DNA of 40,822 nucleotides from a virus (lineage: Duplodnaviria > Caudoviricetes), in the IMG/VR virus record IMGVR_UViG_3300037781_000018, positions 1 to 40,822 of that record; one strand, given 5' to 3'. Under the pieces are notes generated by a model. It saw only the letters and a program-made list of their open reading frames with translations. It was not told the origin of the DNA and did no database searches. The position numbers and the translations under genes are program-made. Below, piece by piece: positions 128 through 32,921 of the stretch. The stretch's first letter is position 1. The number at the start of each line of letters is the position of its first letter.

Positions 128-410
128 AGAGATAGCGTGCGTGACATGTGAGGAATTTGGGTCAATCGGCACGGATGCCGTTTGCCCCACCTGCAATGGG
201 ACGGGTGTGATGACGGTTGACGGATGCCCGCAAAAGTATGTCGCTGGCATTTGCGATGCGATCAACTTGGCCGGACACGCGGGGAATGGGTTACTGCCGG
301 TCGCAGGTGCGATCCTAGACCAATCAGCTTGGTTCCTGGCGTGCTGGCAGGCGTTAGAGTCAGACCAGCACAAAATTGACGAAGAACGGACAAACCGGAG
401 CGGTCGTTAA
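48..410 (+). CDS. Frameshifted extension of tail assembly chaperone (gpGT-like), Cys-rich
   Basis: -1 frame of the chaperone ORF, directly before tape measure; CxxC motifs including CPTCNGTG. Confidence 0.72.
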   Translation: MRVAALIRSGLLCRGCGRQCLDDEQGIEIACVTCEEFGSIGTDAVCPTCNGTGVMTVDGCPQKYVAGICDAINLAGHAGNGLLPVAGAILDQSAWFLACWQALESDQHKIDEERTNRSGR

Positions 411-412
411 GA

Positions 413-2188
413 ATGTCAAAACGCGACATCGACATAGTAATCGGAGCAAAGGACGAAGCGTCGAAGATACTCGGTGACGTATCTAAATCGACGCAGGGTC
501 TTGCTACGTCGATGAGCAAAACCGCAGGGTCGGTCGATGACTCGGCAAGCACGGTCAACCTTAGTTTTGCTTCGCTTGCTGGGATCACGGCTGGCGTTGG
601 GATCGCTATTTCGGCAACCAAAGCACTGACCGGGGCGTTTACTGCTGCTGTCAACGCGGTGGCTGGAATGGGCGAAGCGGTGGAGGCATACGCGCAGCGG
701 TCGCGGGAGGTCGGACTAGCGACCGAGGCCGAGATCGCGTTTGCCGAGCAAGTGCAAGACACGACGAACGCGTCAGTCGCTTCAACGCTCGCGGCACTGC
801 GTCACGCACAGGCAATCGGGATGACGGCCGACGCGGCACAAGATGCGACGGTGATTGCCCAAGGGCTTGCTAAGGCGACCGGCACCGATCAGGTAACAGC
901 GATCAGTGCGCTACGCGATGCGATGCTAGGAAACGCCGACGCACTGTCAAACTTGATTCCAGGCATTGAGCTAGCAAACACGCACCAGGAGCGCATGGCG
1001 TTGGTGTCGGCACATGCCGAACGGGGGCTGGCGATGCTGACCGCCGAGGCTGGTGATTCGATCGGCATCATGGAGCGGCTACAGTCGGCACAGGAAAAGC
1101 TATCTCGGCAGATTGGCCAAGTGTTAGCACCTGCGTTTGATTTTGTTCGCAGTGCGATGGGATCATTTATTTCAGCGGTCTCCGACACTGTTCAACCGGC
1201 GATTGATCAGGTTGCGGGGTCGTTCGAGTCGCTCGCGCCGGTGTTCCAAATGGCTGGTGAAATCATGCGGACGGTGGGCGCAGTAATTGGCGTGGTTATC
1301 TCGTCGATTGTGCGAATTGCGTTTGATATGGCACAGGGATTCGCGACGGCATTTGGTGTCGCTGGCGACGTGGCGAACAGCTTGGTCGATGTCGTGCGGT
1401 CGGTGGCCGAAGGTGTTATTTTCGGGATTACCGCACTCGAGGTGGCGTTTCGCAATATCCCAGCGATCATCGAGTTTGCAGTCACCGAAGCACTGCTAGC
1501 AATGACGACTTTCGCGGCTGACGTTGGGCATCTGCTAACTGTCGAGATTCCCGCGTTCGCGTCATGGTTCGCAGACAACTTCACCAGCTTAATGGCCGAC
1601 GCATTTAACGCGGTGTCGATCGCGTTTGGCAACCTAGCAATAAAAATAATGTCGGTTGGCGATAATTTGCTGACCTACTTGAAATCAGGATTCCAGGACG
1701 GCGCGGTAGATCTTGCGTTGTCGATCAGTGATGCCCTGTCGGGGTCGCTGTTGCAAGGCTTTGAAGCACAGACCCAAGCACTGCCGGAAATAGCCGAGCG
1801 GGCGCAGACGGCCACCGAAAAGATGCTGCAAGAGCGATCGTCGAAGATCGCCAGCAACCTGACCGACGAGTTCAATAAAACGTACCAGTCAAACCTGGCA
1901 GAATTAAACAAAGTTGGCAAGCTAAATGTCGGCATTGAAATGCCGGACCTGTCGACGCTCGACATCGGAGCCATGCGATTTGCAGAGCCGGTGCAAGCTA
2001 CCGAGTCGCGGTTGCAAACTCGCGGGACGGTCGAAAAGCCGTTTGAGCGGGAGCTACTGAAAAACGCATCGGATCAGCTTAAAGAGCAGCAAAGGCAAAC
2101 CAAGGCTTTCGCTGAAATGTCAAAATTCATCCAGGACATGAAGCCGATCGAAGGCCAGCCCCCAATTATCGTTGGGACGGTGCAATAA
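413..2188 (+). CDS. Tail tape measure protein
   Basis: 591 aa, Ala-rich and helical, N-terminal DIDIVIGAKDEAS, position after chaperones. Confidence 0.85.
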   Translation: MSKRDIDIVIGAKDEASKILGDVSKSTQGLATSMSKTAGSVDDSASTVNLSFASLAGITAGVGIAISATKALTGAFTAAVNAVAGMGEAVEAYAQRSREVGLATEAEIAFAEQVQDTTNASVASTLAALRHAQAIGMTADAAQDATVIAQGLAKATGTDQVTAISALRDAMLGNADALSNLIPGIELANTHQERMALVSAHAERGLAMLTAEAGDSIGIMERLQSAQEKLSRQIGQVLAPAFDFVRSAMGSFISAVSDTVQPAIDQVAGSFESLAPVFQMAGEIMRTVGAVIGVVISSIVRIAFDMAQGFATAFGVAGDVANSLVDVVRSVAEGVIFGITALEVAFRNIPAIIEFAVTEALLAMTTFAADVGHLLTVEIPAFASWFADNFTSLMADAFNAVSIAFGNLAIKIMSVGDNLLTYLKSGFQDGAVDLALSISDALSGSLLQGFEAQTQALPEIAERAQTATEKMLQERSSKIASNLTDEFNKTYQSNLAELNKVGKLNVGIEMPDLSTLDIGAMRFAEPVQATESRLQTRGTVEKPFERELLKNASDQLKEQQRQTKAFAEMSKFIQDMKPIEGQPPIIVGTVQ

Positions 2189-3081
2189 TGGCTGTTGATT
2201 CCGTTTCGCTAATGTGGTCGAACAACGATTCGTCGATCGAGTCGCAAGACTTGAAGACGGCTACGTTAAGCCAAACCGACGTTTATCAAGTAACTACGAC
2301 GAGTCCAGATACTACGCGGCTCGATGTTCTTGGGCACGAGGACATACCAGCGATCGGCGATCGGCTGGGTGCTTCGTTCTTCATTTTCTGCCGGTCGGTA
2401 ACTCCGGTCAAAATATCGCCAATTTACTGGGTGGTCACGGTCAAGTGGTCGGGCAACGTCAGTGTGACGGCACTGAACGGCAACCCGCTAACGGCACCTC
2501 CCGAACTTAGCTGGTCGGACGTTGAGACGGCAGAGCCAACTGACGAGGACTTCGACGGCAACCCGATCGTAACGGCAAATAACGAACCGATCACGGGCGT
2601 TACAATTCCGATTGTTGACCAAATATTGACGGTCAAACGCAACTTCGCATCGATCAACACGTTTGCAATCGCACCTTACCGGCAAGCAACGAACAGCGAC
2701 ATTTTCGCTGGCTGGGCACCTGGAACGGTTCGATTGATTCGGTACCAGGCAACAGCAAAGAACAGCACAAATGATGTGACGAACATCGGGCCAAGTCCGC
2801 AGGATGGAGCCTACTGGGAGGTCAACGCCGCGTTTCAGTTTCGCTATCCTTATCGGACAACGAACGACAAAGCCTGGTACGCTCGCGTTCGACATGAAGG
2901 AATGTATGTCAAAGACTCGGCGGGGCGGATCACGCGGGCGACGGTATCGGGTGCCGACGCAACGAAGCCGGTTCTGCTAAAACCAGACGGCACGCGGGAA
3001 CTAGACCCAACAAACGCACACTGGCTAGAATTCAAGCGGCTGGGAAGCCTGCCGTTCAACCTTCTTGGGATGTTGAGTTAA
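2188..3081 (+). CDS. Putative tail tip/distal tail protein
   Basis: 297 aa, beta-rich, coupled to tape measure by TAATG overlap. Confidence 0.55.
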   Translation: MAVDSVSLMWSNNDSSIESQDLKTATLSQTDVYQVTTTSPDTTRLDVLGHEDIPAIGDRLGASFFIFCRSVTPVKISPIYWVVTVKWSGNVSVTALNGNPLTAPPELSWSDVETAEPTDEDFDGNPIVTANNEPITGVTIPIVDQILTVKRNFASINTFAIAPYRQATNSDIFAGWAPGTVRLIRYQATAKNSTNDVTNIGPSPQDGAYWEVNAAFQFRYPYRTTNDKAWYARVRHEGMYVKDSAGRITRATVSGADATKPVLLKPDGTRELDPTNAHWLEFKRLGSLPFNLLGMLS

Positions 3082-3083
3082 TA

Positions 3084-3716
3084 ATGGGCACAACACTTAC
3101 GAACCTATCTTTGCAGCTTCCAGACGGCGGCATTAAAGACGTTGATATAAACAGCGCGGCAGGCATCAAACCGTCGAAGCTGGAACAACAAGCAACGCAG
3201 GTTTTCGATATTCCACTAACCGACGCGCGGGTTTGGGATGACTTTCGGGCGTTGGTGCCATCAACAGCGGCTAACGATGATCTCGGATTGATCACGGGCA
3301 CCTGGGGCACCGACACACCGACGCTACAGAGCGGCGACGGCAAGGCAACCACAATCACGCGGCGGGCCGGGTTCGCGTTCCGGGTTCCGCATAACTTCGT
3401 ATCGGCTGGCACGCTGGTTATTCGCGTTCGAGGCGGGATGGTGACGACGATTTCGGACGACGTTGCGAGCGTCGATTTGGAAGTTTACGAAGCCGACTTA
3501 GATGGCGGTGTCGGATCAGACCTATGCCAAACCAGTGCGGTGTCGGTCAACTCGCTAACAAAAGTCAACGCCGACTTTACAATCGATTCCTCGGGCTTGG
3601 TCGCTGGTGACCTGCTTTACCTTCGGCTGACAGCGGCGATCACTGACGCGGCGACCGGGACCGCTGTAATTGTCGAAGTCTCAGACATTAACGCTCGCCT
3701 GACGACACAAGGCTAA
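3084..3716 (+). CDS. Putative virion/tail protein
   Basis: 210 aa, Thr/Asp/Gly-rich, in tail operon. Confidence 0.5.
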   Translation: MGTTLTNLSLQLPDGGIKDVDINSAAGIKPSKLEQQATQVFDIPLTDARVWDDFRALVPSTAANDDLGLITGTWGTDTPTLQSGDGKATTITRRAGFAFRVPHNFVSAGTLVIRVRGGMVTTISDDVASVDLEVYEADLDGGVGSDLCQTSAVSVNSLTKVNADFTIDSSGLVAGDLLYLRLTAAITDAATGTAVIVEVSDINARLTTQG

Positions 3717-3718
3717 CC

Positions 3719-4444
3719 GTGGCTGACTTTGTTGCCTTTGCATCTGCCGACGACGCTCGCCTAGTGCTCGAAACCGCTCGACGCATTAAGGCTAGCGGTT
3801 TGCTTAATCGGATCGGCGGAAGCGTCGAGGATAGGCCGATAGAGCAGCCGGTCTACTGGGTCAATACAACAGGCGTAACAATTCCGCCCTATTCATGCTT
3901 AACAGCGGCAACGCTCGTTACAAATGACACCCGCGACTATTTCACTGTCAATCGACAAAACTTTATGGATGCGACCGGGGCATCTCCAATCATATTCAGC
4001 ACTGGCGAAGAAGTGCCGTCTGGCGGAATGAGCATCGCGCAGCCGGGGCCGGTCTACAAAGTCAACGCGGACCTCGGGCAGCCTCCGCTAGTCCATAACA
4101 CTGGATTTGCAACGTTCGCACCGGTGGTTAATTCGTACAAACTTTCGGCACGCGCTGGCGGCATGTTTGCGGTAGCACCGATCGAAAACCTAAGCGGACA
4201 AAATGCAAACCAAGATTACAACGCAAAAGCAATTCGGATTTCTCACGGACTGTTTATCTTCAAAAACCGCAACTTCGGAAATGGTGTCGCGGATATTCAT
4301 TGGCTTGATGCTACTCAGTTGCCTACTGGAAAATCCGCTGTCGTCACGGACGGATTAAGTATTTTCGGTCCGAACGTACTAGAGGGCTTTTGTATGCTAT
4401 CTGGCGGAACGTTTGTGATGATTCAAGCACCCTGCCCAGGTTAA
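3719..4444 (+). CDS. Putative tail tip protein
   Basis: 241 aa, tightly packed in tail operon. Confidence 0.45.
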   Translation: MADFVAFASADDARLVLETARRIKASGLLNRIGGSVEDRPIEQPVYWVNTTGVTIPPYSCLTAATLVTNDTRDYFTVNRQNFMDATGASPIIFSTGEEVPSGGMSIAQPGPVYKVNADLGQPPLVHNTGFATFAPVVNSYKLSARAGGMFAVAPIENLSGQNANQDYNAKAIRISHGLFIFKNRNFGNGVADIHWLDATQLPTGKSAVVTDGLSIFGPNVLEGFCMLSGGTFVMIQAPCPG

Positions 4445-4447
4445 CCA

Positions 4448-4861
4448 ATGGCAAGATGGTTTGGACCTCCGAGCGGAAATTGCAGTTGCTGCGAAGCGGG
4501 CGACACAGAATACGGTGCGCCTTGGGTGGACGACGGCGATGCCGCTTTTAGATTTAGCAACTGGGATTTGATCGGAGCGACAAGCAGCAACACAACCAGC
4601 GGAACACTGTACGGCCGACTGGTTTACGCAGCGTCAGGATTTAGCGGCGAAACCACAAATGTTTTCCTTTATCGATTTCCAACGCGTTTACTTGAAAACC
4701 TAGTTGCCGAGTCTCAAAATTTCGGGCCGATATTTGCTGGCGCAGAGTTAACCTTTGCGGCTCGCGGCTTCGATGGAATTACCGGAACTGTGCAGTATGA
4801 CATTCCATTGCTTATCACCGGCAGCGAGGACTTCACCGTCACCGGCACGCCTGTCACCTAA
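4448..4861 (+). CDS. Hypothetical tail-associated protein with N-terminal CSCC motif
   Basis: Last + strand gene of tail operon. Confidence 0.45.
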   Translation: MARWFGPPSGNCSCCEAGDTEYGAPWVDDGDAAFRFSNWDLIGATSSNTTSGTLYGRLVYAASGFSGETTNVFLYRFPTRLLENLVAESQNFGPIFAGAELTFAARGFDGITGTVQYDIPLLITGSEDFTVTGTPVT

Positions 4862-5042
4862 TCGCGGCCGCGAAAATGCAAATTACATGCAGGCACAAGC
4901 CGGGAATCAGACAAGCGAAATACCCGCCCACAACAATTATCAGCCAAATCAACCCCGCCGCGACTTGGCCACGGTAAATTTGCCCGAGGCCGGGAATTAG
5001 GAAGGACAACACGGCGGCAACGCCCAGGTTCGGCTCTTGCAT
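4854..5042 (-). CDS. Small TM2-like membrane protein (possible superinfection exclusion)
   Basis: AAVLSFLIPGLGQIYRGQ motif, almost wholly hydrophobic, downstream of integrase on the same strand. Confidence 0.65.
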   Translation of the reverse strand: MQEPNLGVAAVLSFLIPGLGQIYRGQVAAGLIWLIIVVGGYFACLIPGLCLHVICIFAAAIR

Positions 5043-5095
5043 TTTTGGCTCTGTGGTTAGGAATCTGTCGGACGGGTCGCCATTATAGCGAGCTG

Positions 5096-6007
5096 TCAGC
5101 CGGTTTTGCGGCGGTCGGTGCCTTTTCTTCTGTCGCCCTGCGGATTGCCTAGGAACTCAGCGAGCGCGTCACAGGCTTGACGCTGACGAGTGTAACGCGG
5201 ATCGAGGTATCGTTGAGTCGTGCGGCGGTCCGAATGATCGAGCGTCTCTTGTGGATCCATGCCAGCGGCGTAAACCACCGAGCCAGTAGTTTTGCGAAGG
5301 CAGTGGGTTTGATATTTTCGCCCGGTCGGTAGTCCAGCAGCTTTTACGATCTTTTGGTAGCGGTTGAACAAGTAATTCTCGACATACGGCCAAGGCAAAA
5401 TGGCGGTTCCGTTGCCGCTGTACTTTCGTATCTGCTCGACTGTTTCGCAGGTTTCGTCCGACAGCCGATAGCGTCGATCTCTCGTTTTTCCTTTCCGAAC
5501 TTCGGCGGGCACAAGTAGCCAATCGCCTTGATACCACGTCCACTCCACCTTGCGGATTGCACCGATTCTCTCGCCTGTGTCGAGCATGAGGCGGATCAAT
5601 CCAGGCCACCACAAACCCGCCGGCACGCCAGAGAGCTCGCCTTTTGTTGTCGCTGCGGATTCCAGTAGTTGACGGATTTGCGGCTCCATCCACGCTATCG
5701 GAGCTCGTTCCGGTTCGTGTTCCTCGTCAATGTCGGGCCAGTCGGTCAGCAAGTTTTGCCTAACTGCTTGCCGCCACATGGCCAACAGTTGCGTGAGCTC
5801 TTTGTTTCGAGTTGCTGGCGCGACGTTACGACGCTTTGACAGGTGGAGCAAAACGTTTGTTTCAGTCAAATCGGCTACTTCGGCAGTCCTGCCGAGTGAT
5901 TCTGAAAAGCGTTTTACGCATAACCGGTACAGAATTGCCGATCTTTCGGACTTTCCGCGTAATCGTTTTGGAAAATAAATGTTTTCAAAGAAGTCTAGTA
6001 GTTTCAT
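5096..6007 (-). CDS. int: Tyrosine recombinase / phage integrase
   Basis: TGERIGAI (R), HCLRKT (HxxR), LDHSDRRTTQRY (H...Y); AGGAGG SD upstream. Confidence 0.92.
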   Translation of the reverse strand: MKLLDFFENIYFPKRLRGKSERSAILYRLCVKRFSESLGRTAEVADLTETNVLLHLSKRRNVAPATRNKELTQLLAMWRQAVRQNLLTDWPDIDEEHEPERAPIAWMEPQIRQLLESAATTKGELSGVPAGLWWPGLIRLMLDTGERIGAIRKVEWTWYQGDWLLVPAEVRKGKTRDRRYRLSDETCETVEQIRKYSGNGTAILPWPYVENYLFNRYQKIVKAAGLPTGRKYQTHCLRKTTGSVVYAAGMDPQETLDHSDRRTTQRYLDPRYTRQRQACDALAEFLGNPQGDRRKGTDRRKTG

Positions 6008-6181
6008 CTTTCTACCCTCCTATAGAGAGTAGTGCGCAAGTTAAGGAGAGGTAGGGAAAAAACGTAGAGTGTTGTAGGGGTCAATCGACTAGAGATCCAT
6101 TCTCTCGTCTAAGCGTTTCAGACTGGTATGGATTGCTTTCCAGCAACACCTGTGACAACCAGCCTGCAACGCTTTTTTCTA

Positions 6182-6210
6182 TTGCTCGTTCTATCGATAC
6201 CAGCTAAACT
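6182..6210 (+). promoter_or_regulatory. Sigma70-type promoter for the HTH gene
   Basis: TTGCTC-17bp-TAAACT, palindrome TATCGATA in spacer; ATG 8 nt downstream. Confidence 0.55.
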
Positions 6211-6218
6211 CGTGCCCT

Positions 6219-6437
6219 ATGATTTGTCAAATGAAAACGTCGAACTTCGTAAACGTCAAAGAGGCAGCGGAAATTATCGGCTGTCACGAGTCGCGAGTGC
6301 GCCAATTACTTAACGACGGAACGCTTGAGGGCGTTAAATTTAACGCTCGCGCGTGGGCTGTTGACCGAAAATCAGCCGAGGAAATGCGTGATTTTCATCC
6401 ATCCACCGGAAGACCGCGCGGAAAAAGTACAAAATAG
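6219..6437 (+). CDS. Excisionase-like (MerR-type) HTH DNA-binding protein
   Basis: VNVKEAAEIIGCHESRVRQLLNDGTLEGVKF...W pattern, divergent from integrase; alternative start 6231. Confidence 0.8.
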   Translation: MICQMKTSNFVNVKEAAEIIGCHESRVRQLLNDGTLEGVKFNARAWAVDRKSAEEMRDFHPSTGRPRGKSTK

Positions 6438-6478
6438 TCGTTATTCCTGTTGACGACTATTCTCTTTAACGATAAAAC
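6433..6478 (+). promoter_or_regulatory. Promoter with overlapping inverted repeat (operator-like)
   Basis: TTGACG(6450)-17bp-TAAAAC(6473); AATAGTCGT/ACGACTATT inverted repeat overlaps the -35. Confidence 0.55.
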
Positions 6479-6604
6479 TACCAGCGTCACAGTTGTTGCT
6501 GGTTTCGATTCCTGCACTAAGAGGAATCAACGCCAGCGTATTTAACTCGCTGGTGGACTTCTAGGGGCTTCTGTCCCGACCGTTCGCCATTCAGGAGAAC
6601 GGGA

Positions 6605-7192
6605 ATGCACAAGCAGTGGCACGTTTACGTGTTGCGTGACCCCAGGGACGGTTTTGTTCGTTACGTCGGAATGACGTGCAGTGCAAACGCTCGCAGTAAA
6701 TATCACAAAAGCTACGCTGACGGAACAGCAAGGCGGAAGCTTTGGACAGCAGAGCTCGCAATTTGTGGATGCCGTCCAGAATTCCAAGTCATCGCGACGT
6801 TTGACGGTAAAGACAAGGCAAAGCAAGCCGAGACACGGTTAATTGTTTTGCATCAAAACAACTACCCAGGAAGGCTGCTAAACGCGCAAGCGGTGTTCAC
6901 TCAAAAAGGGTTTTGGATTAACCGCGAGCCAAGCTGCACGCCATCGCCAGGCGACGGGCATTTCGCAGCATTTCTTTCCGGCTCGCGTCAGCTTGCTAGC
7001 CGCTACGTCGAGCGTGAGCAGTTAGTTGCAAAGCGACACCCAGAACTTGCTTTGCCTGTAATTCGTGCCTTGTACGACACCTGCCGCGATAAGTCGGCGA
7101 TGGCTAAGCGAAACCACGGCTTTCTTTACAACCATTCAATTCTTGAGATTGCCATTAAGCGTCTCGTCCGCAAACACATCTTCGCAGCATAA
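6605..7192 (+). CDS. GIY-YIG family nuclease
   Basis: HVYVLRDPRDGFVRYVGMT, downstream R, AETRLI (E) and LLN. Confidence 0.75.
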   Translation: MHKQWHVYVLRDPRDGFVRYVGMTCSANARSKYHKSYADGTARRKLWTAELAICGCRPEFQVIATFDGKDKAKQAETRLIVLHQNNYPGRLLNAQAVFTQKGFWINREPSCTPSPGDGHFAAFLSGSRQLASRYVEREQLVAKRHPELALPVIRALYDTCRDKSAMAKRNHGFLYNHSILEIAIKRLVRKHIFAA

Positions 7193-7203
7193 GGACTCAC
7201 AAA

Positions 7204-7581
7204 ATGCCAAAACAAAAACTAGAGATCGAAATTGAAGTCCCCGACGGCTACCGCTGCGTCGGTTTCGGCCATGTGCTACTAGGGACGCTGTTCTTGAACA
7301 GTAACAGCGGCGTTGATCGCTGGAATTTAAGCGACCCCAGCAAAGGCCAATACTTCATCCTCGAACGCGTTGAACGTTGGCGACCGGCAACGCTTGAGGA
7401 CGTTGTGCGCAGTCTGCAAGGCAGGGACGTTCCAGCACGCTTTCGAGGGCCTGCCACTAATGAATGGTGCGGCGGCAAGCTTTGCGGCTTACGTGAGTTC
7501 GACAAGTACGGAACTTGGCTCTGCCAGCACAGCGGATGGCAAGAGTGCGAAGTCCTCGACACTGAGGATTCGAGCCAATGA
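7204..7581 (+). CDS. Hypothetical protein
   Basis: AAGGA SD, operon packing. Confidence 0.7.
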   Translation: MPKQKLEIEIEVPDGYRCVGFGHVLLGTLFLNSNSGVDRWNLSDPSKGQYFILERVERWRPATLEDVVRSLQGRDVPARFRGPATNEWCGGKLCGLREFDKYGTWLCQHSGWQECEVLDTEDSSQ

Positions 7582-24236: not shown

Positions 24237-25159
24237 TGTTTACTTTTCCTATTGGGTTTCATTCGTTTTCGCCTGTCGGTGGTGGCTCTTTATTGCTTGA
24301 TACTTACAGCGGAGGGCAACTTGCATTTTCGCTTCGGAAAGTACGCAACGCATACTCTGGTAATTGCGTGCGGGTAAGGCGGTCGTCGGATAATGCAGAG
24401 CAAGATGTTGGTTTTGTAGATAGAGTTATTGATACCGCGTCAATGCTGACTTTCTGTGGGGCTGGAGATGGGTTTGTTGTTACTTGGTACGAACAGTCTG
24501 GTAATGGACTCAACGCAACTCAGGCAAGCAATTCGTTACAGCCGCAAATTGTCACTAGCGGTGCCGTTAATACCTTTGGAGGCAAGCCTTCGGTTGATTT
24601 TAATGGCTCGACGAGTGTGCTGTGGGGCACTGACGGCGGTGTGCTTAATGGGTTGAGGACCGGGCAGCTCTCTTATTTTGCGGCGGCCAGGTCGTTTGCA
24701 TTGCCGAAATATGCTTGCATCTTCACTCCGTCTGTCTCAAGCTCAGACGGACAGGGTTCTATTGCATTACAAAAATTTGGGGTTAGTGGGTCTATCTTCG
24801 GCCCACACAATACCTGGATCGCTGGGACTAACGTTGCATCAGTAGATTTAACTGGCGTCCGTGCTGAGCATTACATATTTTCCACATTTCGAGACTCTGC
24901 TGGCACAGCAGGAAACGGCGCTCAGCAATTGGTAGCAGTCCGCAATGGCGCGAGAAATCTCAGTAGCACTGGCACGCAAACCTGGACAAGCAATAATGGG
25001 ACAAAATTTGCGATCGGAAACCAAAGCGACGTAGATTCAGGAACGCCTGTTAACTGGGATGGCCCGATTCAGGAATTATTAGTCTTTAGCGTTGATCACC
25101 GTGCAAATCGTGCGGCTATCGAGGCTGACATGGCGGCAGCTCACGGGATTGCTCTTTAA
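24236..25159 (+). CDS. Lectin/LamG-like fibre-tip protein
   Basis: AFSLRKVRNAYSGNCVRVRRSSDNAEQDVGF...WYEQSGNG; coupled to fibre gene. Confidence 0.68.
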   Translation: MFTFPIGFHSFSPVGGGSLLLDTYSGGQLAFSLRKVRNAYSGNCVRVRRSSDNAEQDVGFVDRVIDTASMLTFCGAGDGFVVTWYEQSGNGLNATQASNSLQPQIVTSGAVNTFGGKPSVDFNGSTSVLWGTDGGVLNGLRTGQLSYFAAARSFALPKYACIFTPSVSSSDGQGSIALQKFGVSGSIFGPHNTWIAGTNVASVDLTGVRAEHYIFSTFRDSAGTAGNGAQQLVAVRNGARNLSSTGTQTWTSNNGTKFAIGNQSDVDSGTPVNWDGPIQELLVFSVDHRANRAAIEADMAAAHGIAL

Positions 25160-25270
25160 CACGCAACGATCCATCGCGTGTTACGTGAGCTGAGAAGCTG
25201 AGTCGAGTGCACGCGGCTCGGTGGAGCTCCCAGGCCCGGTACGTTAAGCCGGGCCGCCAAAACACCCGAC

Positions 25271-25303
25271 AGCCCCGACGCCCACCCGCGCCGGGGCTTT
25301 TTT
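25271..25303 (+). terminator. Rho-independent terminator
   Basis: AGCCCCG/CGGGGCT stem followed by T-tract. Confidence 0.7.
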
Positions 25304-25345
25304 GTGGGGTGGGGAAAGCCGCATAATTCTTTTCTGATTTTAGGC

Positions 25346-25373
25346 TTGACTGTTTTCTAGCCGATGTTAAAAT
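25346..25373 (+). promoter_or_regulatory. Near-consensus sigma70 promoter at the head of the accessory region
   Basis: TTGACT-16bp-TAAAAT with TGn extension and AT-rich upstream tract. Confidence 0.72.
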
Positions 25374-25417
25374 TCAGACATACAAGAGACGATATCACCT
25401 CACACGGGAAAACGAAA

Positions 25418-25576
25418 ATGACCGCCATTGAGCTGAAAAACGAAATCGCTGAGATCAAGGAAGAAATCGCAAACGTCAAGGAAATCGAGACAGGCGACTA
25501 CTTCCCAGCTTGGGAAAAAGAGCGAGACCTTGAAAGGCTTTACGCTCGACTCGGAAAGCTGATCGCGGAGCTTTGA
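25418..25576 (+). CDS. Small coiled-coil protein
   Basis: First ATG with GGGA SD after the promoter. Confidence 0.6.
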   Translation: MTAIELKNEIAEIKEEIANVKEIETGDYFPAWEKERDLERLYARLGKLIAEL

Positions 25577-25577
25577 G

Positions 25578-25769
25578 GTGAGAGGCGGCAAACGAGAGGG
25601 AGCAGGCAGGCCGCCCGCTCCCGAGGGCGAAAAAAAAGTGCCGTATGCGACTAAGCTCGATCCGCAGGTGGTCGAGTATTTGAGGGCGTGCGGCAACGGG
25701 GCACGGGCGATTGAGCAGGCTATTCAGCGTAGCAAGGCCTTTCGGGAGTGGATGGCTAACAGACGATAG
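25578..25769 (+). CDS. Small DNA-binding protein (RHH/BrnA-like)
   Basis: RGGKREGAGRP followed by TKLDPQVVEYLR. Confidence 0.65.
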   Translation: MRGGKREGAGRPPAPEGEKKVPYATKLDPQVVEYLRACGNGARAIEQAIQRSKAFREWMANRR

Positions 25770-25796
25770 GATTTTGACACTTACACGGGGAATGAG

Positions 25797-26078
25797 ATGA
25801 GCAGCAGATTCTACGCGGTCGCGGATGCTAACGGGCCAATCTCGGTAGCGATCAACACCCGAACGGCGGAGCAGGCTTGCAAGTGGTTTGCGAAGCATGA
25901 CGCGGCTGAATTCGTTGACCAAGGCCGCACCGACGCGGAAGATGATTTTGGCGCGGAGTGTGAGGGGATGAGCAAAGGGTTGTTTTTCCACGTGATGCGA
26001 AGCAACGGCTATGAAGTTGTCGAACTTGACATGGCTGGCGATTACAACTGGATGCTGTGGGCACGTGCGGAAGATTGA
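25797..26078 (+). CDS. Hypothetical protein (module cargo)
   Basis: Flanked by 28-bp sites at 25757 and 26084. Confidence 0.65.
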   Translation: MSSRFYAVADANGPISVAINTRTAEQACKWFAKHDAAEFVDQGRTDAEDDFGAECEGMSKGLFFHVMRSNGYEVVELDMAGDYNWMLWARAED

Positions 26079-26120
26079 CCAACTAACGGCCAATAACGAA
26101 TCCTTTGTAAAGGAGCGATA

Positions 26121-26396
26121 GTGAGTACCGAAAAAATACTGGTTGAGCGGTTGCGCGATTACGACCAGTGCCATGACGGCGATATAGACGAAGCGGCGGA
26201 TATGCTGGAGTTTTTCTTTGGACAGATGCAGATGCACTCACCGAAGATGGACGGCCAGCACAGCTACAGCTTTCGCGGCGGGTGGCCGATGCAACACTGC
26301 ATCGGGAACAGTCCAGAAGCTGCGGTAAGGGCTGCGATTGCGGAGATTCGCAAGGCTTCCGGTGAAGCGGCTTTGGGTATTAACAGCGAACAATAA
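26121..26396 (+). CDS. Hypothetical protein (module cargo)
   Basis: AAGGAG SD; flanked by sites at 26084 and 26381. Confidence 0.7.
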   Translation: MSTEKILVERLRDYDQCHDGDIDEAADMLEFFFGQMQMHSPKMDGQHSYSFRGGWPMQHCIGNSPEAAVRAAIAEIRKASGEAALGINSEQ

Positions 26397-26513
26397 ATCG
26401 GGTGTAACAGACGACGATTGAGGCAGCGTCACCGGGGACGCGAATTCAATAAGCCCGCGTTGGCCACTGACGCTACAGTGGAAGTCAAAGACGGTCAAAC
26501 CGGATTGGCGAGT

Positions 26514-26613
26514 GGATCGGCGGCGTGGACGGTGACGCGCGGAAAGCCTTGCTGGTTTGTTGCTACAAGACCTAGGTGACCAGCTAGAGCAGGTTCGACT
26601 CCTGCCCGATCCA
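26514..26613 (+). ncRNA. tRNA-like RNA 1 (no canonical anticodon arm)
   Basis: GGATCGG/CCGATCC acceptor, GCGT/ACGC D-like stem, GCAGG-TTCGACT-CCTGC T-arm; 100 nt. Confidence 0.65.
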
Positions 26614-26728
26614 TTATTTTTGCCTCAAAAAGTAGGTAGTTTTTCAGGCAGGCTTGTGGGAAAAAGTAGCCATTTTTACCCACAGGTAACGGCTAAGAAC
26701 AGATTCTTTGTAAAAGGCGACGATCAAA

Positions 26729-26956
26729 ATGGATGAGGCAAAGGAAAGAGCGGCGGCGTTTCTTGCTGACATGGTGGAGCTTTGTCGAAAGCACAGGGCA
26801 ATGGTCTACCTTGACGGAGAAGGCGAAGATGCTGACGTGGAGTTCGTCGAGCAGCCGATAGGCACCAGCGGCTATATGTTTTCGGTTGGGATTGCAGAGA
26901 TTGAGGAAGCAGTTCGACGAGAGCTTTGGAAAGAACTTTACGACGGCGAGTTGTAG
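26729..26956 (+). CDS. Hypothetical acidic protein (module cargo)
   Basis: Flanked by sites at 26687 and 26954. Confidence 0.65.
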   Translation: MDEAKERAAAFLADMVELCRKHRAMVYLDGEGEDADVEFVEQPIGTSGYMFSVGIAEIEEAVRRELWKELYDGEL

Positions 26957-26992
26957 CGGCCAAGTCTCGATTGACACTTAACGGGGTGATTT

Positions 26993-27307
26993 ATGTTGGC
27001 GGAAGATGCGATTCAAGCAATCAAAGCACTTGACGAAGCGGGGGCGTGTTCGTTTATCACTTGTGAGTCCGGGCACGGTACACGACCCCAAGTCACTGTG
27101 AAATTCAAGCACATTCAAGACGCGCAAAGCTTCCACCGTGCACTAATCCGGTGCGGTGAAGTCGCGAGGTTGATCGTGGCGGACACGCAAGAGAAACTTG
27201 AGCAGCAAAGCGTTCGAGATATGGCAGCGGCGGCTGGTATGGATATTAGCGACATCCGGGGCGAAGATATTGACAGCTTGACCGGCAAGCGGTCGTTTAA
27301 CGAGTAA
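26993..27307 (+). CDS. Hypothetical protein (module cargo)
   Basis: GGGGTG SD; flanked by sites at 26954 and 27298. Confidence 0.65.
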   Translation: MLAEDAIQAIKALDEAGACSFITCESGHGTRPQVTVKFKHIQDAQSFHRALIRCGEVARLIVADTQEKLEQQSVRDMAAAAGMDISDIRGEDIDSLTGKRSFNE

Positions 27308-27361
27308 GGCTGGATCGTGCGAGACGGGCAGCTGTCAAGTATTCCTTGACAGCTCAGTAAC

Positions 27362-27470
27362 GGACTAGAGGCACGGCAGTGCACTGCGCGACAACAATGG
27401 TTGGGCGTCGTCGAGGTGGCAACTCGCGACGGGAAGCAGGCCAAACCAGGTTCGACTCCTGGCTAGTCCA
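27362..27470 (+). ncRNA. tRNA-like RNA 2 (expanded anticodon domain)
   Basis: GGACTAG/CTAGTCC acceptor, GCAC/GTGC D-like stem, CCAGG-TTCGACT-CCTGG T-arm; 109 nt. Confidence 0.65.
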
Positions 27471-27504
27471 TTAACGGGTAAGTTTTGATCGGGTGTAAAA
27501 GACG

Positions 27505-27765
27505 ATGCGAGTAGTCCAGGCTAGTTTGTGCTTACGTTTTTATCGTTCGGCGGGTTGGACTCGCGAGGCTGTCCGTGAATTGTTGAGCGACGACAAGCGG
27601 CTTGCTCGCGTGTTTCCGAGATACTTCGACGATCGGGACCAAGCCGGGAACGGTAGCTTTGAGTTAGACGACGGGCTGCCTCACGACGATTGCGACTACT
27701 TTGCTGTCTACGGGGCGTGCAATCCGTTTTCGGCTGAGGCGTTGGCACAGCACGACATTGCGTAA
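27505..27765 (+). CDS. Hypothetical protein (module cargo)
   Basis: Fills the interval between sites 27472 and 27763; its stop is the TAA of the site. Confidence 0.55.
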   Translation: MRVVQASLCLRFYRSAGWTREAVRELLSDDKRLARVFPRYFDDRDQAGNGSFELDDGLPHDDCDYFAVYGACNPFSAEALAQHDIA

Positions 27766-27875
27766 CGGACAATAGATCATTGCGTTTTAATGATCGGCGG
27801 AAAGTTAAAATAACGGGCCGGTAATTTTAATCCGGCGTAACGGTCAAGGTTTCATTGGGTGTAAAGGAAAAGATC

Positions 27876-28061
27876 GTGAACTACATACGCAAGACATACG
27901 GTGTGCAGGCTTACCGTGGCGGAAGAGTGCTTTACACCGGTGGATCGGTGGCACGGTGGGGCACGATTAAATCGGCTCGTGGTCCGTATCTTAGGATTTT
28001 ACTGGACGGCGATAAACACGCAGGTAGCTATCATCCCACTTGGGAACTGAAATATCTGTAA
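27876..28061 (+). CDS. Small phage protein (SH3-like)
   Basis: YIRKTYGV..RGGRV...YLRILLDG...YHPTWELKYL; stop is the TAA of site 28059. Confidence 0.7.
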   Translation: MNYIRKTYGVQAYRGGRVLYTGGSVARWGTIKSARGPYLRILLDGDKHAGSYHPTWELKYL

Positions 28062-28080
28062 CACGCAAGGCGGTATCGGC

Positions 28081-28169
28081 ACCTAACGTTTGTGATAACC
28101 ACGCGGCGAGATTGATTTTACCATTGCGAAACCACGTTGCCGCCGCTGTGGTTCATCGCATTGTTCATC
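28081..28169 (-). mobile_element. attC site of cassette C
   Basis: Plus strand ACCTAAC-6-GATAACC-ACGCGGCG...CGCCGC(T)GT-GGTT(C)ATC-5-GTTCATC; two extrahelical bases. Confidence 0.85.
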
Positions 28170-28188
28170 GGCGGTTTTGGTCTATGAG

Positions 28189-28476
28189 ATGAAGCGAGCA
28201 GTAACCGAACCATACCCTTGCGATCAAGTTCAAGAAACGCACAGGGGCGACAACATAACCGTCTTTCGTGGTCAATCAGAGTTGATCGTCTACGGCGAGG
28301 GGTCGGACTGGATGATCCAGTATTCCAGAATCACGAATCATTGTGACGGCTGGCGGCGATGGTATGCACACCGTGACGATGCGGAAGCGAAGGCCCGCGA
28401 GGTGGCCAGAAAACCGTACGGAGGGCGTGGCGGTGTCGATGATGAATGCACAAAGGTGCCACAGAAGTTTGCCTAG
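28189..28476 (+). CDS. Cassette C hypothetical protein
   Basis: Inside cassette 28087-28618, inverted relative to attC. Confidence 0.6.
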   Translation: MKRAVTEPYPCDQVQETHRGDNITVFRGQSELIVYGEGSDWMIQYSRITNHCDGWRRWYAHRDDAEAKAREVARKPYGGRGGVDDECTKVPQKFA

Positions 28477-28612
28477 CGACACATGCAGCGGAGCCTAGAG
28501 GGACAAACACAGATCGGCGTGGTCGTGGATGCGATCAACCAAGGACGCGGTGAGATGTGCCTGGGAGTGGGCTTAGAGTTAACGGGATAGCAAAGACGCT
28601 GCATTTTCGTCC

Positions 28613-28700
28613 GATGAACGCTTTGATTAAACCGGCGGCGAGAGTATCGCTGCCATTGGAACCGACGCTGCCGCCGCTCGGTTTCAATCAATTGTTATGC
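28613..28700 (-). mobile_element. attC site of cassette B
   Basis: GATGAAC-6-ATTAAAC-CGGCGGCG...CGCCGC(T)CG-GTTT(C)AAT-5-GTTATGC. Confidence 0.85.
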
Positions 28701-28714
28701 GGCTAGGATAGCGA

Positions 28715-28957
28715 ATGATGTTTCAGAACATGGTGAAAGCACCAAAGGCGTTTGAGGATGCACTGGTTGCGTCGGCAGCATTGGACGCATTGCCGCCGGA
28801 GATGATTCAATACGGTGTTAAGCTCGCAACGAAAGCAGGCGAGAAGGTTGATTCTCTAAGGTGGCGTCTATGGGAAGATGCGGCACGCTTTGCCGAGGGT
28901 GAAGTGGCTGAGGGCAGGGCGACTGGTTTTTGGGTGTTCAAAGAGGCTGCGGTTTAG
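28715..28957 (+). CDS. Cassette B hypothetical protein
   Basis: Fills cassette 28619-28966; stop lies 1 nt before the terminal CCGCATAAC. Confidence 0.65.
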   Translation: MMFQNMVKAPKAFEDALVASAALDALPPEMIQYGVKLATKAGEKVDSLRWRLWEDAARFAEGEVAEGRATGFWVFKEAAV

Positions 28958-28960
28958 TCC

Positions 28961-29056
28961 GCATAACGTCGGTCATCAACGGGCCGGAAAGAAAGAAAGA
29001 ATTAACCATGAAAAATAAAGCTGCAAGTCCGGCTCCGTTGCATGACGTTGTTCTAC
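28961..29056 (-). mobile_element. attC site of cassette A
   Basis: GCATAAC-6-CATCAAC-GGGCCGGA...TCCGGC(T)CC-GTTG(C)ATG-5-GTTCTAC. Confidence 0.85.
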
Positions 29057-29376
29057 GTCCGCACTGGCCGGAAGGGCTAGAGCAAGGCCGGTTTTACCAA
29101 TTCAATTGTGACGATGACGGCAGAGACGGCGATGCGTTTTTCCGTGTGTTGGTTGCGAACGATGGCGACGTTCATTTGTGTGCGTCAAAGTTGATCGAGC
29201 CAGGATTTACGGACAAGGTATCCGGCGAGCGGAAACCATCGTTGTACGACAATTTCCCTTCGGTTCGGTGTCGAACCGGAATCGGCGGCGGAATGCATAG
29301 CAGAACGCGGCAGGCGTTGTTGTGGCTTGCGATGGCGATCAAGTTAGACAACGAAGAACTAGGGATCGTGGATTAG
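29008..29376 (+). CDS. Cassette A hypothetical protein
   Basis: ATG in the attC loop; stop lies 2 nt before the terminal ACGTAGAAC; cassette 28967-29386. Confidence 0.65.
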   Translation: MKNKAASPAPLHDVVLRPHWPEGLEQGRFYQFNCDDDGRDGDAFFRVLVANDGDVHLCASKLIEPGFTDKVSGERKPSLYDNFPSVRCRTGIGGGMHSRTRQALLWLAMAIKLDNEELGIVD

Positions 29377-29378
29377 GT

Positions 29379-29400
29379 ACGTAGAACTATTGATTAACGC
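29379..29400 (-). mobile_element. attI-like simple site
   Basis: Minus strand GCGTTAATCAATAGTTCTAC: TAA-6nt-GTT spacing as in attI1 (CCCTAAAACAAAGTT); no attC hairpin. Confidence 0.55.
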
Positions 29401-29462
29401 CAACTAAGTAGGGGCGTATTCGTGAAATGGCCCTACTCAGTAACGGCCAATGCGGGATCGAC

Positions 29463-29553
29463 GCCTAACGCTAATGTTTACCGAGCCCCCGCCGGTAGAC
29501 TCTCCACTTCAAACAACCGTTGCCGGGGGCGTCGGTACAACATTTTGTTATCG
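29463..29553 (-). mobile_element. attC site of cassette D
   Basis: GCCTAAC-6-GTTTACC-GAGCCCCCG...CGGGGGC(G)TC-GGTA(C)AAC-5-GTTATCG. Confidence 0.85.
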
Positions 29554-29561
29554 GGTGCGAT

Positions 29562-29990
29562 ATGTGGCAAGAAGAAGTATTGGTAGACAAGACAATCATC
29601 GATGTGAAGGTCAAGAGCCCATCTGTGTGGTTGCAAGTTAAGGAAGGTGGTTGGGTTGAAATTAACGTAGAGGGCGATTGTTGCTCAGAGGCGTTTGTGG
29701 ACGCTGTGCGATTGCATGGCACACCCAAGCTGACGGGCAAGAGCGAGGAAATCAGTTTTCCGTCGCAACCAACGTCGCAGGAAGTGGACGAAATTACGGC
29801 GGTGCGATTCTTGGGCGATCGAGGTAGCGTTTCGATCCTTCACCGCAATTCGTCAAACGGATATTACGGCAACTACTTGTCGGTCAACTCACGAGGCGAG
29901 CCACCAGTGGACGCAGTATACGGAAAAGAGTGGTTTCGGGACGTGCAAACAACCCGACTCAGTAACACGCAACGCGGAATCAACGTCTAG
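29562..29990 (+). CDS. Cassette D protein, DCC...SNGYY phage family
   Basis: EGDCCSE and HRNSSNGYYG motifs; alternative TTG start at 29520 inside attC. Confidence 0.7.
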   Translation: MWQEEVLVDKTIIDVKVKSPSVWLQVKEGGWVEINVEGDCCSEAFVDAVRLHGTPKLTGKSEEISFPSQPTSQEVDEITAVRFLGDRGSVSILHRNSSNGYYGNYLSVNSRGEPPVDAVYGKEWFRDVQTTRLSNTQRGINV

Positions 29991-30000
29991 CCGCTCGATT

Positions 30001-30544: not shown

Positions 30545-30883
30545 GTGCCGATTCGCGACACTCGAATGATGGCAAAGGCTTTGATTCAACGTTGGCCAAT
30601 TAGTGTAGACGCAAAGGCTCAAATCATTGAGCGACTGGTTGACATCGTGTCTGACCCTAGCAGCAGTCCGCGCGAGGTGACGGCGGCGGCCAAAGGCTTA
30701 TTGAGTGCGGAGAAACAAAACCAGGACGACGAGCATAAGGTGGTAGATGTACGGATTCAGAGCCGACACGCTGAACTGGATGCGATTGCTGCCGACCTCG
30801 GAGTTGACCTTGGTGTTGTCGAGGATGCCAGTAGAAAAGCGGAAGGCGGCACTGTTGGCCCTGAAAGAATTGGCGGTTCGTGA
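30545..30883 (+). CDS. Putative terminase small subunit
   Basis: Helical 112 aa immediately upstream of and overlapping the large subunit. Confidence 0.55.
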   Translation: MPIRDTRMMAKALIQRWPISVDAKAQIIERLVDIVSDPSSSPREVTAAAKGLLSAEKQNQDDEHKVVDVRIQSRHAELDAIAADLGVDLGVVEDASRKAEGGTVGPERIGGS

Positions 30884-32921
30884 TGCGGAAGAAACCGACG
30901 AGTCAAAGGACGCAGCGCGGAAGCGGGAGAAACGATCGGAAGCGGCACGGGTCACAATTGGCACTTGTCAAAATCCAGCACGCAGGGAGGCGTGCTTGGC
31001 TGACCCTGAGCGGTTTTTGCGAACCTACATCGACTACCGATTTACTCGGGCGTTTTACCCACATCAGGTGCGAATGATCGAAGGCATCTACGACCGAGCA
31101 CGGTACGGCGGCAGTAAGAGCTACGCGGCACCTCGGGGCGACGGCAAGACGGAGGTTTGCACCGCGATGATTGTATTTGTCATGCTGGCCGGGTTGGTCG
31201 ATTACGTCGTTGCAATCGCGGCAACAACGAAGCTGGCGAGCGACATTTTCAAAGATGTTAAATATCACTTTGAAACGTCGCCGCTGCTGTCGGCTGACTT
31301 TCCCGAAGTGTGCGATCCGATCAAGGCATTAGAGGGTGCACCGCAGCGGGCGGGCAAGCAGCACGTTGATGGCGTGCTGACGCGGATTGAGTGGAAGCAA
31401 GATCGATTGATTTTGCCGGAGGTTAGCGGTTCGCCGTTCGGTGGTGCGTGCATGAATTACTACGGATTCGACGCGGCGATTCGGGGCGTGCGGATTCGTG
31501 GCAAGCGGCCAAGGCTGGCACTGGTCGATGACCCAGAGACGCGGGAAAGTGCCAAGTCTGATCAGCAAATTAAAGACCGAGGCGACATGCTCGACCGCGA
31601 CGTGGCGGGCTTGGGCGGGCAGGAGGGCAACGTGTCGATTGTGGCGATTACGACTTGCCAAAACAGGCGGTCGCTGTCGTGGAAGTTGACTGGGGAGGAT
31701 AAGGCGGGCAACAAGATCAAGCCAGCATACGAGGGCGAACGGTTTGCGGCTATCAAAGCCTGGCCGACGAACGCGGAACTTTGGGACGATTACGTCGCCC
31801 AGCGGAAAATCGATCAGAACAACGGCGACCCATACGGACAGACGGCGACAGCACTTTACCTAGCGAACCGAGAGGCGATGGACGCGGGTGCGGAGGTCAT
31901 CAACCCTGGCCGGTACGATCGCAACATTACGCCGGAAGGAGAGTCGATTGAGGTGAGTAACCTTCAGCATTGCTACAACTTCATCGCGGATCGCGGGCTT
32001 CCGTCATTCCTTGCCGAGTACCAAAACGAACCGGAGCCGGAGGAGGAACTGCAAACGGTCGGGCTGACTAGCGGTAAGGTGATGAGCCGAACTAACACGC
32101 TCGAGCGGCGGGAACTGCCGGAGGATTGCGAGTTGGTTTGTCTGGGAATCGACATTGGCAAGTACGCTTCCCACTGGTCGCAACTGGCGTTTGCTGGTAA
32201 CGCGGTCGGCTACGTCACGGACTACGGAGTGATCGAGACATACGGGCTGGACGTATCGTCGAGCGAACAGGCGATTGAGCGGGCGATTTTGGCATCGTTG
32301 CGAAACTTTGCTGACGAGTTAATGACAGAGGTGAAACCGCTGATCGTGCTTGTAGACTCGGGTGATTACTCCGATGCAGTCTATGAATTTTGCAGGTCAA
32401 CGGGTCCGCCCTTTTTCCCGTGTAAGGGTATGCCGGGATCAAACTTTAGGATGCCGGAGCAGTCAAAGACGAAGCAGCCGTTCCTTGAAGCCTGGGCGCA
32501 CTGGATCGAACGCGAGCAGTCGTGGTTGTATAACGTCAATTCCTGGTACTGGAAAAACTGGGTGCACGAGCGTTTTATGACGGACGCGCTAACCGATGGA
32601 GTCGCGAACGATGGGTCGTTGTCGCTGTTTGCTCCGCGTAATCACAAAGAGCACCTGTCGTTTGCAAAGCACATCGTCGCGGAGGAATTGCAATCGAAGT
32701 TTGAACCAGGCAAAGGCGTCAAAACCCATTGGGCACAGGTCAGTAAAAACAACCACTGGCTTGATGCCACATCGTATGCGTGCTGCGCGGCGGCATGTGC
32801 TGGGATGCGTTTAATACCGCAGACCCAGCGAACAGTTAGTCAGCAGGTTAAAGACAATCGAAAGCAAACCCAGACGGGCACGGGCTTACATGGTCGGTCG
32901 TTCGTTGCAACTCAACGGTAA
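30747..32921 (+). CDS. Terminase large subunit (GpA-like nuclease domain)
   Basis: APRGDGKT Walker A, LALVDDPE Walker B, LGIDIG, VDSG, NHWLDA; true start may be ~30825. Confidence 0.88.
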   Translation: MYGFRADTLNWMRLLPTSELTLVLSRMPVEKRKAALLALKELAVRDAEETDESKDAARKREKRSEAARVTIGTCQNPARREACLADPERFLRTYIDYRFTRAFYPHQVRMIEGIYDRARYGGSKSYAAPRGDGKTEVCTAMIVFVMLAGLVDYVVAIAATTKLASDIFKDVKYHFETSPLLSADFPEVCDPIKALEGAPQRAGKQHVDGVLTRIEWKQDRLILPEVSGSPFGGACMNYYGFDAAIRGVRIRGKRPRLALVDDPETRESAKSDQQIKDRGDMLDRDVAGLGGQEGNVSIVAITTCQNRRSLSWKLTGEDKAGNKIKPAYEGERFAAIKAWPTNAELWDDYVAQRKIDQNNGDPYGQTATALYLANREAMDAGAEVINPGRYDRNITPEGESIEVSNLQHCYNFIADRGLPSFLAEYQNEPEPEEELQTVGLTSGKVMSRTNTLERRELPEDCELVCLGIDIGKYASHWSQLAFAGNAVGYVTDYGVIETYGLDVSSSEQAIERAILASLRNFADELMTEVKPLIVLVDSGDYSDAVYEFCRSTGPPFFPCKGMPGSNFRMPEQSKTKQPFLEAWAHWIEREQSWLYNVNSWYWKNWVHERFMTDALTDGVANDGSLSLFAPRNHKEHLSFAKHIVAEELQSKFEPGKGVKTHWAQVSKNNHWLDATSYACCAAACAGMRLIPQTQRTVSQQVKDNRKQTQTGTGLHGRSFVATQR

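Follow-up and report, generated by a model that had tools for sequence, protein, structure and literature searches.

Integrons are tools of bacteria, often directed against phages. The closest described counterparts of the locus analysed here are phage-borne CALINs, i.e., groups of attCs in phage genomes with no accompanying IntI; Qi et al. (2023, PMC9892861) describe such arrays, report that IntI1 recombined five of six tested phage attCs, and include an attI-headed CALIN from the Shewanella prophage M16-3. The possibility that CALINs are served in trans has been discussed (Cury 2016, PMC4889954), and Planctomycetota are listed among integron hosts (Ghaly 2021, PMC8618304). Outside integrons, IntI inserts cassettes at short GWT sites, and the preprint by Loot et al. 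(bioRxiv 10.1101/2022.09.11.507474) found no orientation bias among such insertions in bacterial chromosomes. When attC bottom strands lie on the lagging-strand template, they fold and recombine more and excision is raised, and large chromosomal arrays are described as avoiding that orientation (Loot 2017, PMC5371416).

The stretch of DNA analysed (the window) is an entire viral record of 40,822 bp, which represents a complete genome with direct terminal repeats. It belongs to a tailed phage with a gpA-type terminase (positions 30747-32921), and the metagenome runs containing it are pond metagenomes. A search with the terminase returned the same phage (L001) and one relative at 34%; L001 is 100% identical to the phage over an overlap restricted to the part from 29433, and no match was found among 50,697 GenBank phages. 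The locus of interest belongs to a series of small plus-strand genes that separates the packaging genes from a tail-region gene, whose end is at 25159. The best explanation, to which we assign a probability of about 70%, is that the phage carries an integrase-less cassette array, made up of three cassettes headed by an attI-like site, plus a lone fourth cassette, all with genes antisense to planctomycete-type attCs, and that this array was likely built by host IntI acting in trans. The CALIN with its attI-like head is real in this phage, and it may recombine there. The features are listed in Table 1.

Table 1. Positions of array, cassette, promoter and dyad features in the 40,822-bp window
Feature	Position	Strand	Remarks
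attC 1 (AAC to GTT span)	28085..28165	-	65.2 bits; crossover G^TT between 28087 and 28086
attC 2	28617..28696	-	53.9 bits
attC 3	28965..29052	-	53.5 bits; A/G-rich stretch and predicted ORF start codon in loop
attC 4	29467..29549	-	56.1 bits; second insertion, of a single cassette
attI-like simple site	29379..29401	-	crossover G^TT between 29387 and 29386
Cassette 1	28087..28618	-	532 bp; 9-bp self-complementary ends
Cassette 2	28619..28966	-	348 bp; ends complementary over 9/9
Cassette 3	28967..29386	-	420 bp; ends complementary over 9/9
Cassette 1 ORF	28189..28476	+	95 aa; antisense to attC; 5 database matches, one being its own protein
Cassette 2 ORF	28715..28957	+	80 aa; antisense; 10 homologues
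Cassette 3 ORF	29008..29376	+	122 aa; widespread phage-type family; 71 homologues, N-terminus variable
Cassette 4 ORF	29562..29990	+	DUF7448 / phrog_2650; antisense to attC 4
Sigma-70-like promoter candidate upstream of the small-gene operon	25346..25373	+	10/12 match, TG extension; count not above chance for the region
Zone of twelve 27-bp imperfect dyads	25157..29989	+	at gene junctions
Dyad starts	25157, 26084, 26381, 26687, 26954, 27298, 27472, 27763, 27838, 28059, 29441, 29963	+	
Dyad supplying the R-box half where the first array ends	28059..28085	+	attC 1 junction
Dyad supplying the R-box half adjoining attC 4	29441..29467	+	attC 4 junction

The initial annotation, made from the letters of the window, had proposed three attCs on the minus strand; the sites and their polarity proved real, but their actual number is four, attC 4 having been overlooked. 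All four lie within 1.5 kb, compared with the at least two clustered attCs by which a CALIN is defined. A structural scan with the pattern AAC-N5-L''(8, one bulge)...L'(7)-N6-GTT returned four attC-like sites, every one of them on the minus strand; 20 shuffled genomes gave 0.05 on average. Along that strand each site begins with AAC and a 5-nt spacer; an 8-nt L'' carrying one bulge follows, then a second bulge, the loop and an L' of 7 nt, with a 6-nt spacer before the closing GTT. Each folds into a hairpin, mismatches in the L box and inner stem are absent from all four, and in every case two bulged, extrahelical bases in the 3' arm of the plus strand set the strand polarity. Rfam returned no match to the phage sites. 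An attC model was built from 18 chromosomal planctomycete sites, 11 of them from an IntI-linked array (L180) of the Pirellulaceae MAG G001 and seven from Roseimaritima (L064). The model is 96% paired, with 12 of 19 pairs changed on both sides (covariation), and it matched the phage genome exactly four times, always on the minus strand, with 53-65 bits (E 1e-12 to 1e-15), the next match reaching 9.9 bits. The phage sites are true attCs of planctomycete type. It is very hard to credit that the hairpins are unrelated phage regulatory palindromes merely resembling attC: they do precede genes, and one holds a start codon, but their E values against the host model, their 96-98% identity to attCs of planctomycete MAGs and the complementary ends specific to each cassette all speak against it.

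All six terminal 9-mers are located where the initial annotation had placed them. Each end of cassettes 1-3 is complementary to its own far end over 9/9 bases and to the other five ends over 3-4, and the circle sizes derived for these cassettes were also correct. Cassette 4 has no attI-like site, and its far end is complementary over 4/9 bases, reading like a 5-base insertion in an otherwise matching end. The claim that the ORFs run antisense to the attCs held as well, with plus-strand frames corresponding to conserved protein families: the four phage cassette genes, each of which has homologues or belongs to a family, are all encoded on the plus strand, opposite to the attC top strand. The gene of cassette 1 has no Pfam, PHROG or NCBIfam family, and the cassette-2 alignment found nothing in the viral contig database. 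The ATG of the cassette 3 ORF, at 29008, lies 42 nt inside attC 3, and the first ~14 codons are contained in that site; the stops of ORF 2 and ORF 3 are found 8-9 nt (8 nt for ORF 2) ahead of the R-box AAC. The structure model of the cassette 3 protein (pLDDT 88.6) gave no match in the PDB, one unnamed viral model at E = 7e-4, and Atlas matches below 0.9. Cassette 1 also contains ~140 nt without a long ORF (28477-28610), a 115-nt piece of which is conserved in a contig of metagenome run X7.

At the right end of the array, the TAA-N6-GTT spacing reported earlier is present. The bottom strand of the G001 attI has the sequence AAC-N5-ATTATC; a single match to AAC-N5-ATTA[AT]C exists in the phage genome, at 29385. 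A matrix was derived from 14 host attI sites, the first-cassette junction having been located in 13 of 20 further intI regions and in G001; it places the phage right end sixth among 1519 GTT sites, with five others scoring higher, and the score of 6.6 falls within the leave-one-out range of the host sites (-1.1 to 11.7). Repeats like those behind the G001 attI were not found at the phage right end. These comparisons give good, not decisive, support for the right end as a putative attI; the match itself is modest. In G001 itself, the attI region (L180:13490-13680) contains several TTATCCC-type repeats and a duplicated palindrome between attI and intI, and the start of the attI stretch recurs on contig C15 with a different first cassette. 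In the Planctomycetaceae MAG G002, two intI genes have related repeat stretches on their downstream side (L126:1523-2020 and L129:674-1180), the former followed by a tRNA-like sequence.

No intI adjoins the attI-like site, as it does attI in a complete integron, and the complete phage genome encodes no IntI, as had been claimed. The sole tyrosine recombinase found (5096-6007, 303 aa), which is also the sole PF00589 match, reaches 28.6 bits with TIGR02249 against a cut-off of 265. In planctomycetes, IntI above the cut-off was found in 4/5 genomes picked for matching attCs and in 56/121 genomes of the family of G001; G002 encodes three.

The zone containing the array also holds the twelve 27-bp imperfect dyads, which the initial annotation had overlooked. 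Their form is TAAC-RSSY-AA, six variable bases and AT-Y...TGTWA, with 10-bp arms and a 7-bp centre; a regular expression gave 10 matches against 0.11 per shuffled genome, and the 12 best scores of a dyad matrix in the genome all fall within 25157-29990 on one strand, with none elsewhere. Both attC 1 and attC 4 join the last bases of a dyad ending CCTA, and the sole other dyad of this subtype (29963) ends TAGC, lacks GTT and carries no insertion at its end. As attI sites the dyads were rejected: 11 of 12 have a scorable GTT, ranking 274-1434 of 1519 with negative scores. Minimal attCs were likewise discarded on inspection, the 19 nt between AAC and GT being too short for R and L boxes. Searches of viral contigs with dyad patterns gave single, unrelated matches (6 loci, and 19 loci of which one was the same phage), the dyad-junction pattern had no match in the metagenome contigs, and dyad arrays were not found elsewhere. 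Our best guess, at slightly better than even odds, is that the dyads are operators for a phage regulator; a second recombination site is considerably less probable, and decayed att scars are a shade less probable still. The operon's second gene encodes a 63-aa protein (25578-25769) whose Atlas neighbours are ribbon-helix-helix-like (0.88-0.90), a lead that makes it a candidate dyad binder. In layout, the dyads resemble intergenic dyads of phages such as the ESAS of cluster K mycobacteriophages: in both cases imperfect inverted repeats recur where small accessory genes adjoin. In the present phage, two of them double as cassette insertion points.

Two further repeats were observed in this zone. 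The motif CTCAG-TAAC occurs three times (27331-27358, 29403-29440 and 29951-29962), twice closing a short hairpin and twice preceding a dyad. A hairpin resembling a tRNA T-arm is present in two 34-nt copies (26583-26616 and 27440-27473; 79% alike), each followed by CCATTA; a sub-threshold, weak tRNA-Sec match covers 26514-26612, and a 27-mer similar to the copies is present in viral contig L004.

The dyads bear on whether a phage-encoded recombinase, either the 5096-6007 enzyme or that of a co-infecting phage, moves the cassettes and perhaps also uses the dyads as a second site. The genome does encode a tyrosine recombinase, the dyads have the arms and centre described above and are placed at gene junctions, and three of six joints detected in X7 contigs within 25157-29990 touch a dyad, but mapping errors can mimic joints between copies of a repeat. 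Classical tyrosine recombinases require matching centres, and the dyad centres all differ. The enzyme shows no significant likeness to the IntI of G001 (BLASTP E = 3), its gene lies 22 kb from the array, and the attCs are of host type with their extrahelical bases intact. We consider this explanation quite improbable.

In gene orientation the phage differs from the mostly canonical host arrays. It was called by the longest open frame, units shorter than 150 or longer than 1100 nt being skipped, with 42 of the 92 host and viral units unassigned. Among 61 host units (10 loci), 39 were canonical, two inverted and 20 unassigned; the 31 viral units (eight sequences including this phage) comprised two canonical, seven inverted and 22 unassigned, and two phage-like MAG contigs contributed none, two and six, respectively. 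The resulting Fisher p = 1.2e-5 overstates independence, the loci being few and non-independent. Five of ten tested L180 ORFs on the attC strand belong to Pfam families. The viral contig L149 carries an array of mixed orientation (159-7408; 14 attC matches), with mostly inverted genes, including one for a DNA methyltransferase, and some canonical cassettes.

If host IntI built the phage array, it would cut the folded plus strand, i.e., the attC bottom strand, during infection or lysogeny, and circular cassettes would be inserted at the attI-like site or at GTT in a dyad, a GWT target. The inverted genes would be read from the phage plus-strand operon promoter instead of an attI-side Pc. A promoter had been proposed at 25346; the site is present, matching 10/12 positions with an extended -10, but the scan yields 4 sites where 3.7 are expected. 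The best minus-strand promoter matches 9/12, which is at chance level. Inversion would make the coding strand the recombinogenic one. Should the genes run with replication, the coding strand would serve as the lagging-strand template, and the inverted cassettes would take the high-recombination orientation; the GC skew of the plus strand is +0.10. Since IntI showed no strand bias at genomic GWT sites in the preprint by Loot et al., the inversion would need selection or a biased origin.

The attCs had been expected to match host integrons, and near-identical sites were indeed found in planctomycete MAG arrays, in agreement with a planctomycete origin. For attC 1, a counterpart with 95-96% identity occurs in two G001 arrays (L181 and L182). 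One G001 cassette with an attC 1-like site shares its first 12 and last 13 bases with phage cassette 1 and holds a different inverted gene; it sits inside a mostly canonical chromosomal array, whose MAG contig could conceivably be mis-binned, and against viral contigs its gene gave just a 22-residue zinc-finger-like match. attC 2 shares 97.7% identity with a G002 site (L061/L183), in an array among phage-like genes, including a helicase with PHROG matches, at the end of a chromosomal contig. It is also 95% identical to a site in viral contig L008 (2946-3034), which has a different gene behind it and GAT in place of GTT at the R' end, features consistent with insertion at a non-canonical GWT site. 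With two candidates per genome scored, a search of 401 genomes of the family of G001 did not turn up the cassette bodies; six of these genomes gave attC matches alone. A 5.2-kb contig binned to Microbacteriaceae (L094), probably a mis-binned phage contig, has seven attCs of planctomycete type together with small inverted genes.

The predicted movement of the cassettes was not seen directly. Neither excision circles nor an empty site occurred in the contigs of seven runs, which counts only weakly against movement, since contigs drop rare variants; no joint was found at the array in the X1-X7 contigs, six of these runs containing the phage or pieces of it. Cassette gain, loss or reordering was likewise not seen in the phage's own lineage, and the search for close relatives gave none with another gene order. 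A joint from 29467 to 29996 in X7 was considered as a cassette loss and not counted, having a 20-base side between two similar dyads. Of the proposed phage-type cassette pool, movement at G^TT could be recognized in other phage contigs but not for these exact cassettes. Starting at the AAC of one attC, viral contigs L004 and L005 are near-identical through three cassettes on the right, but on the left their cassettes are unrelated, the difference falling exactly at the crossover. X7 contigs contain attC 2-like and attC 4-like sites with other flanks, the similarity beginning at AAC. Of 35 fetched loci of the cassette-3 family, 30 were scanned with the host attC model (five duplicates omitted). 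The family occurs as an inverted cassette in L149 and L157, joined at AAC to different neighbours; L148 has an attC-like hairpin recognized by eye only, and the remaining scanned loci have no attC beside the gene. An ordinary phage gene, free in most loci, thus also exists in cassette form. A 4047-nt contig (X1-X3, X5 and X6; depth up to 380) contains two 19-mers matching arms of attC 2 and attC 3 in opposite orientations, and is perhaps a small element with divergent attCs.

The proposal that host IntI assembles the array in trans draws on the attC identity and polarity, the self-complementary ends, the planctomycete origin, the missing IntI and the cassette replacement at G^TT in other phage contigs. 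Its strongest competitor, though still unlikely, is that the block is a relic, put together a single time or taken over as one piece from a host integron or a different phage; it would have ceased to recombine in this lineage, with the hairpins retained as translation starts and spacers. The lack of rearrangement in any contig of the phage fits such a relic, as does the degenerate far end of cassette 4, and the start of ORF 3 could preserve attC 3 without recombination. Decay of this kind is, however, difficult to reconcile with perfect L boxes and inner stems in 4/4 attCs and 9/9 ends in three cassettes; with host arrays mostly canonical, one of them is unlikely to have supplied three consecutive inverted cassettes, and two separate insertions occurred at the same dyad position.

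Going beyond the proposed assembly by host IntI, we tentatively suggest, with more doubt than confidence, that planctomycete phages are a source of new cassettes. Phage genes would be built into a reusable chassis, with an attC in front and a matching 9-bp end behind the stop, and host IntI would carry the resulting backward cassettes from phage to phage and into chromosomal integrons. The cassette-3 family and the cassette-1 chassis would be snapshots of cassette birth, and the dyads preferred landing pads. Cassette birth and phage-host cassette traffic can be studied on concrete substrates: a gene family that occurs with and without a cassette, and a chassis whose cargo differs between phage and host.

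Compared with known systems, the locus shares with the phage CALINs of Qi et al. (2023) the clustering of attCs without IntI in a phage genome, whereas the main text of that paper does not report systematically antisense genes, a gene start inside an attC, a phage-type pool or planctomycete phages; its figures or supplements may show ORF orientations. The sedentary chromosomal integrons of Pirellulaceae (G001 contig C8, i.e., L180, and 20 further intI regions) have the same attC family, attI sites that the phage's attI-like site resembles, and complementary cassette ends of 7-10 bp, and their cassettes include SMI1/KNR4, Sel1 and DUF families. In contrast to the phage, which lacks intI and has 4/4 genes inverted, they carry intI beside attI, and 39/41 called units are canonical. 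IntI insertion at short GWT sites, which the preprint of Loot et al. presents as SALINs or attG insertions, would explain the lone cassette 4 and the L008 site. That work concerns bacterial chromosomes, whereas here the two insertions fall at one and the same position of a phage repeat, with every gene inverted. Our literature search, which covered few subscription journals, found no paper on systematically inverted phage cassettes. Phage CALINs are already known, and what is new here is the reversed architecture together with the apparent traffic with host integrons: the phage appears to draw on its host's integron chemistry to handle accessory genes of its own, and the reversal of the layout suits phage transcription.
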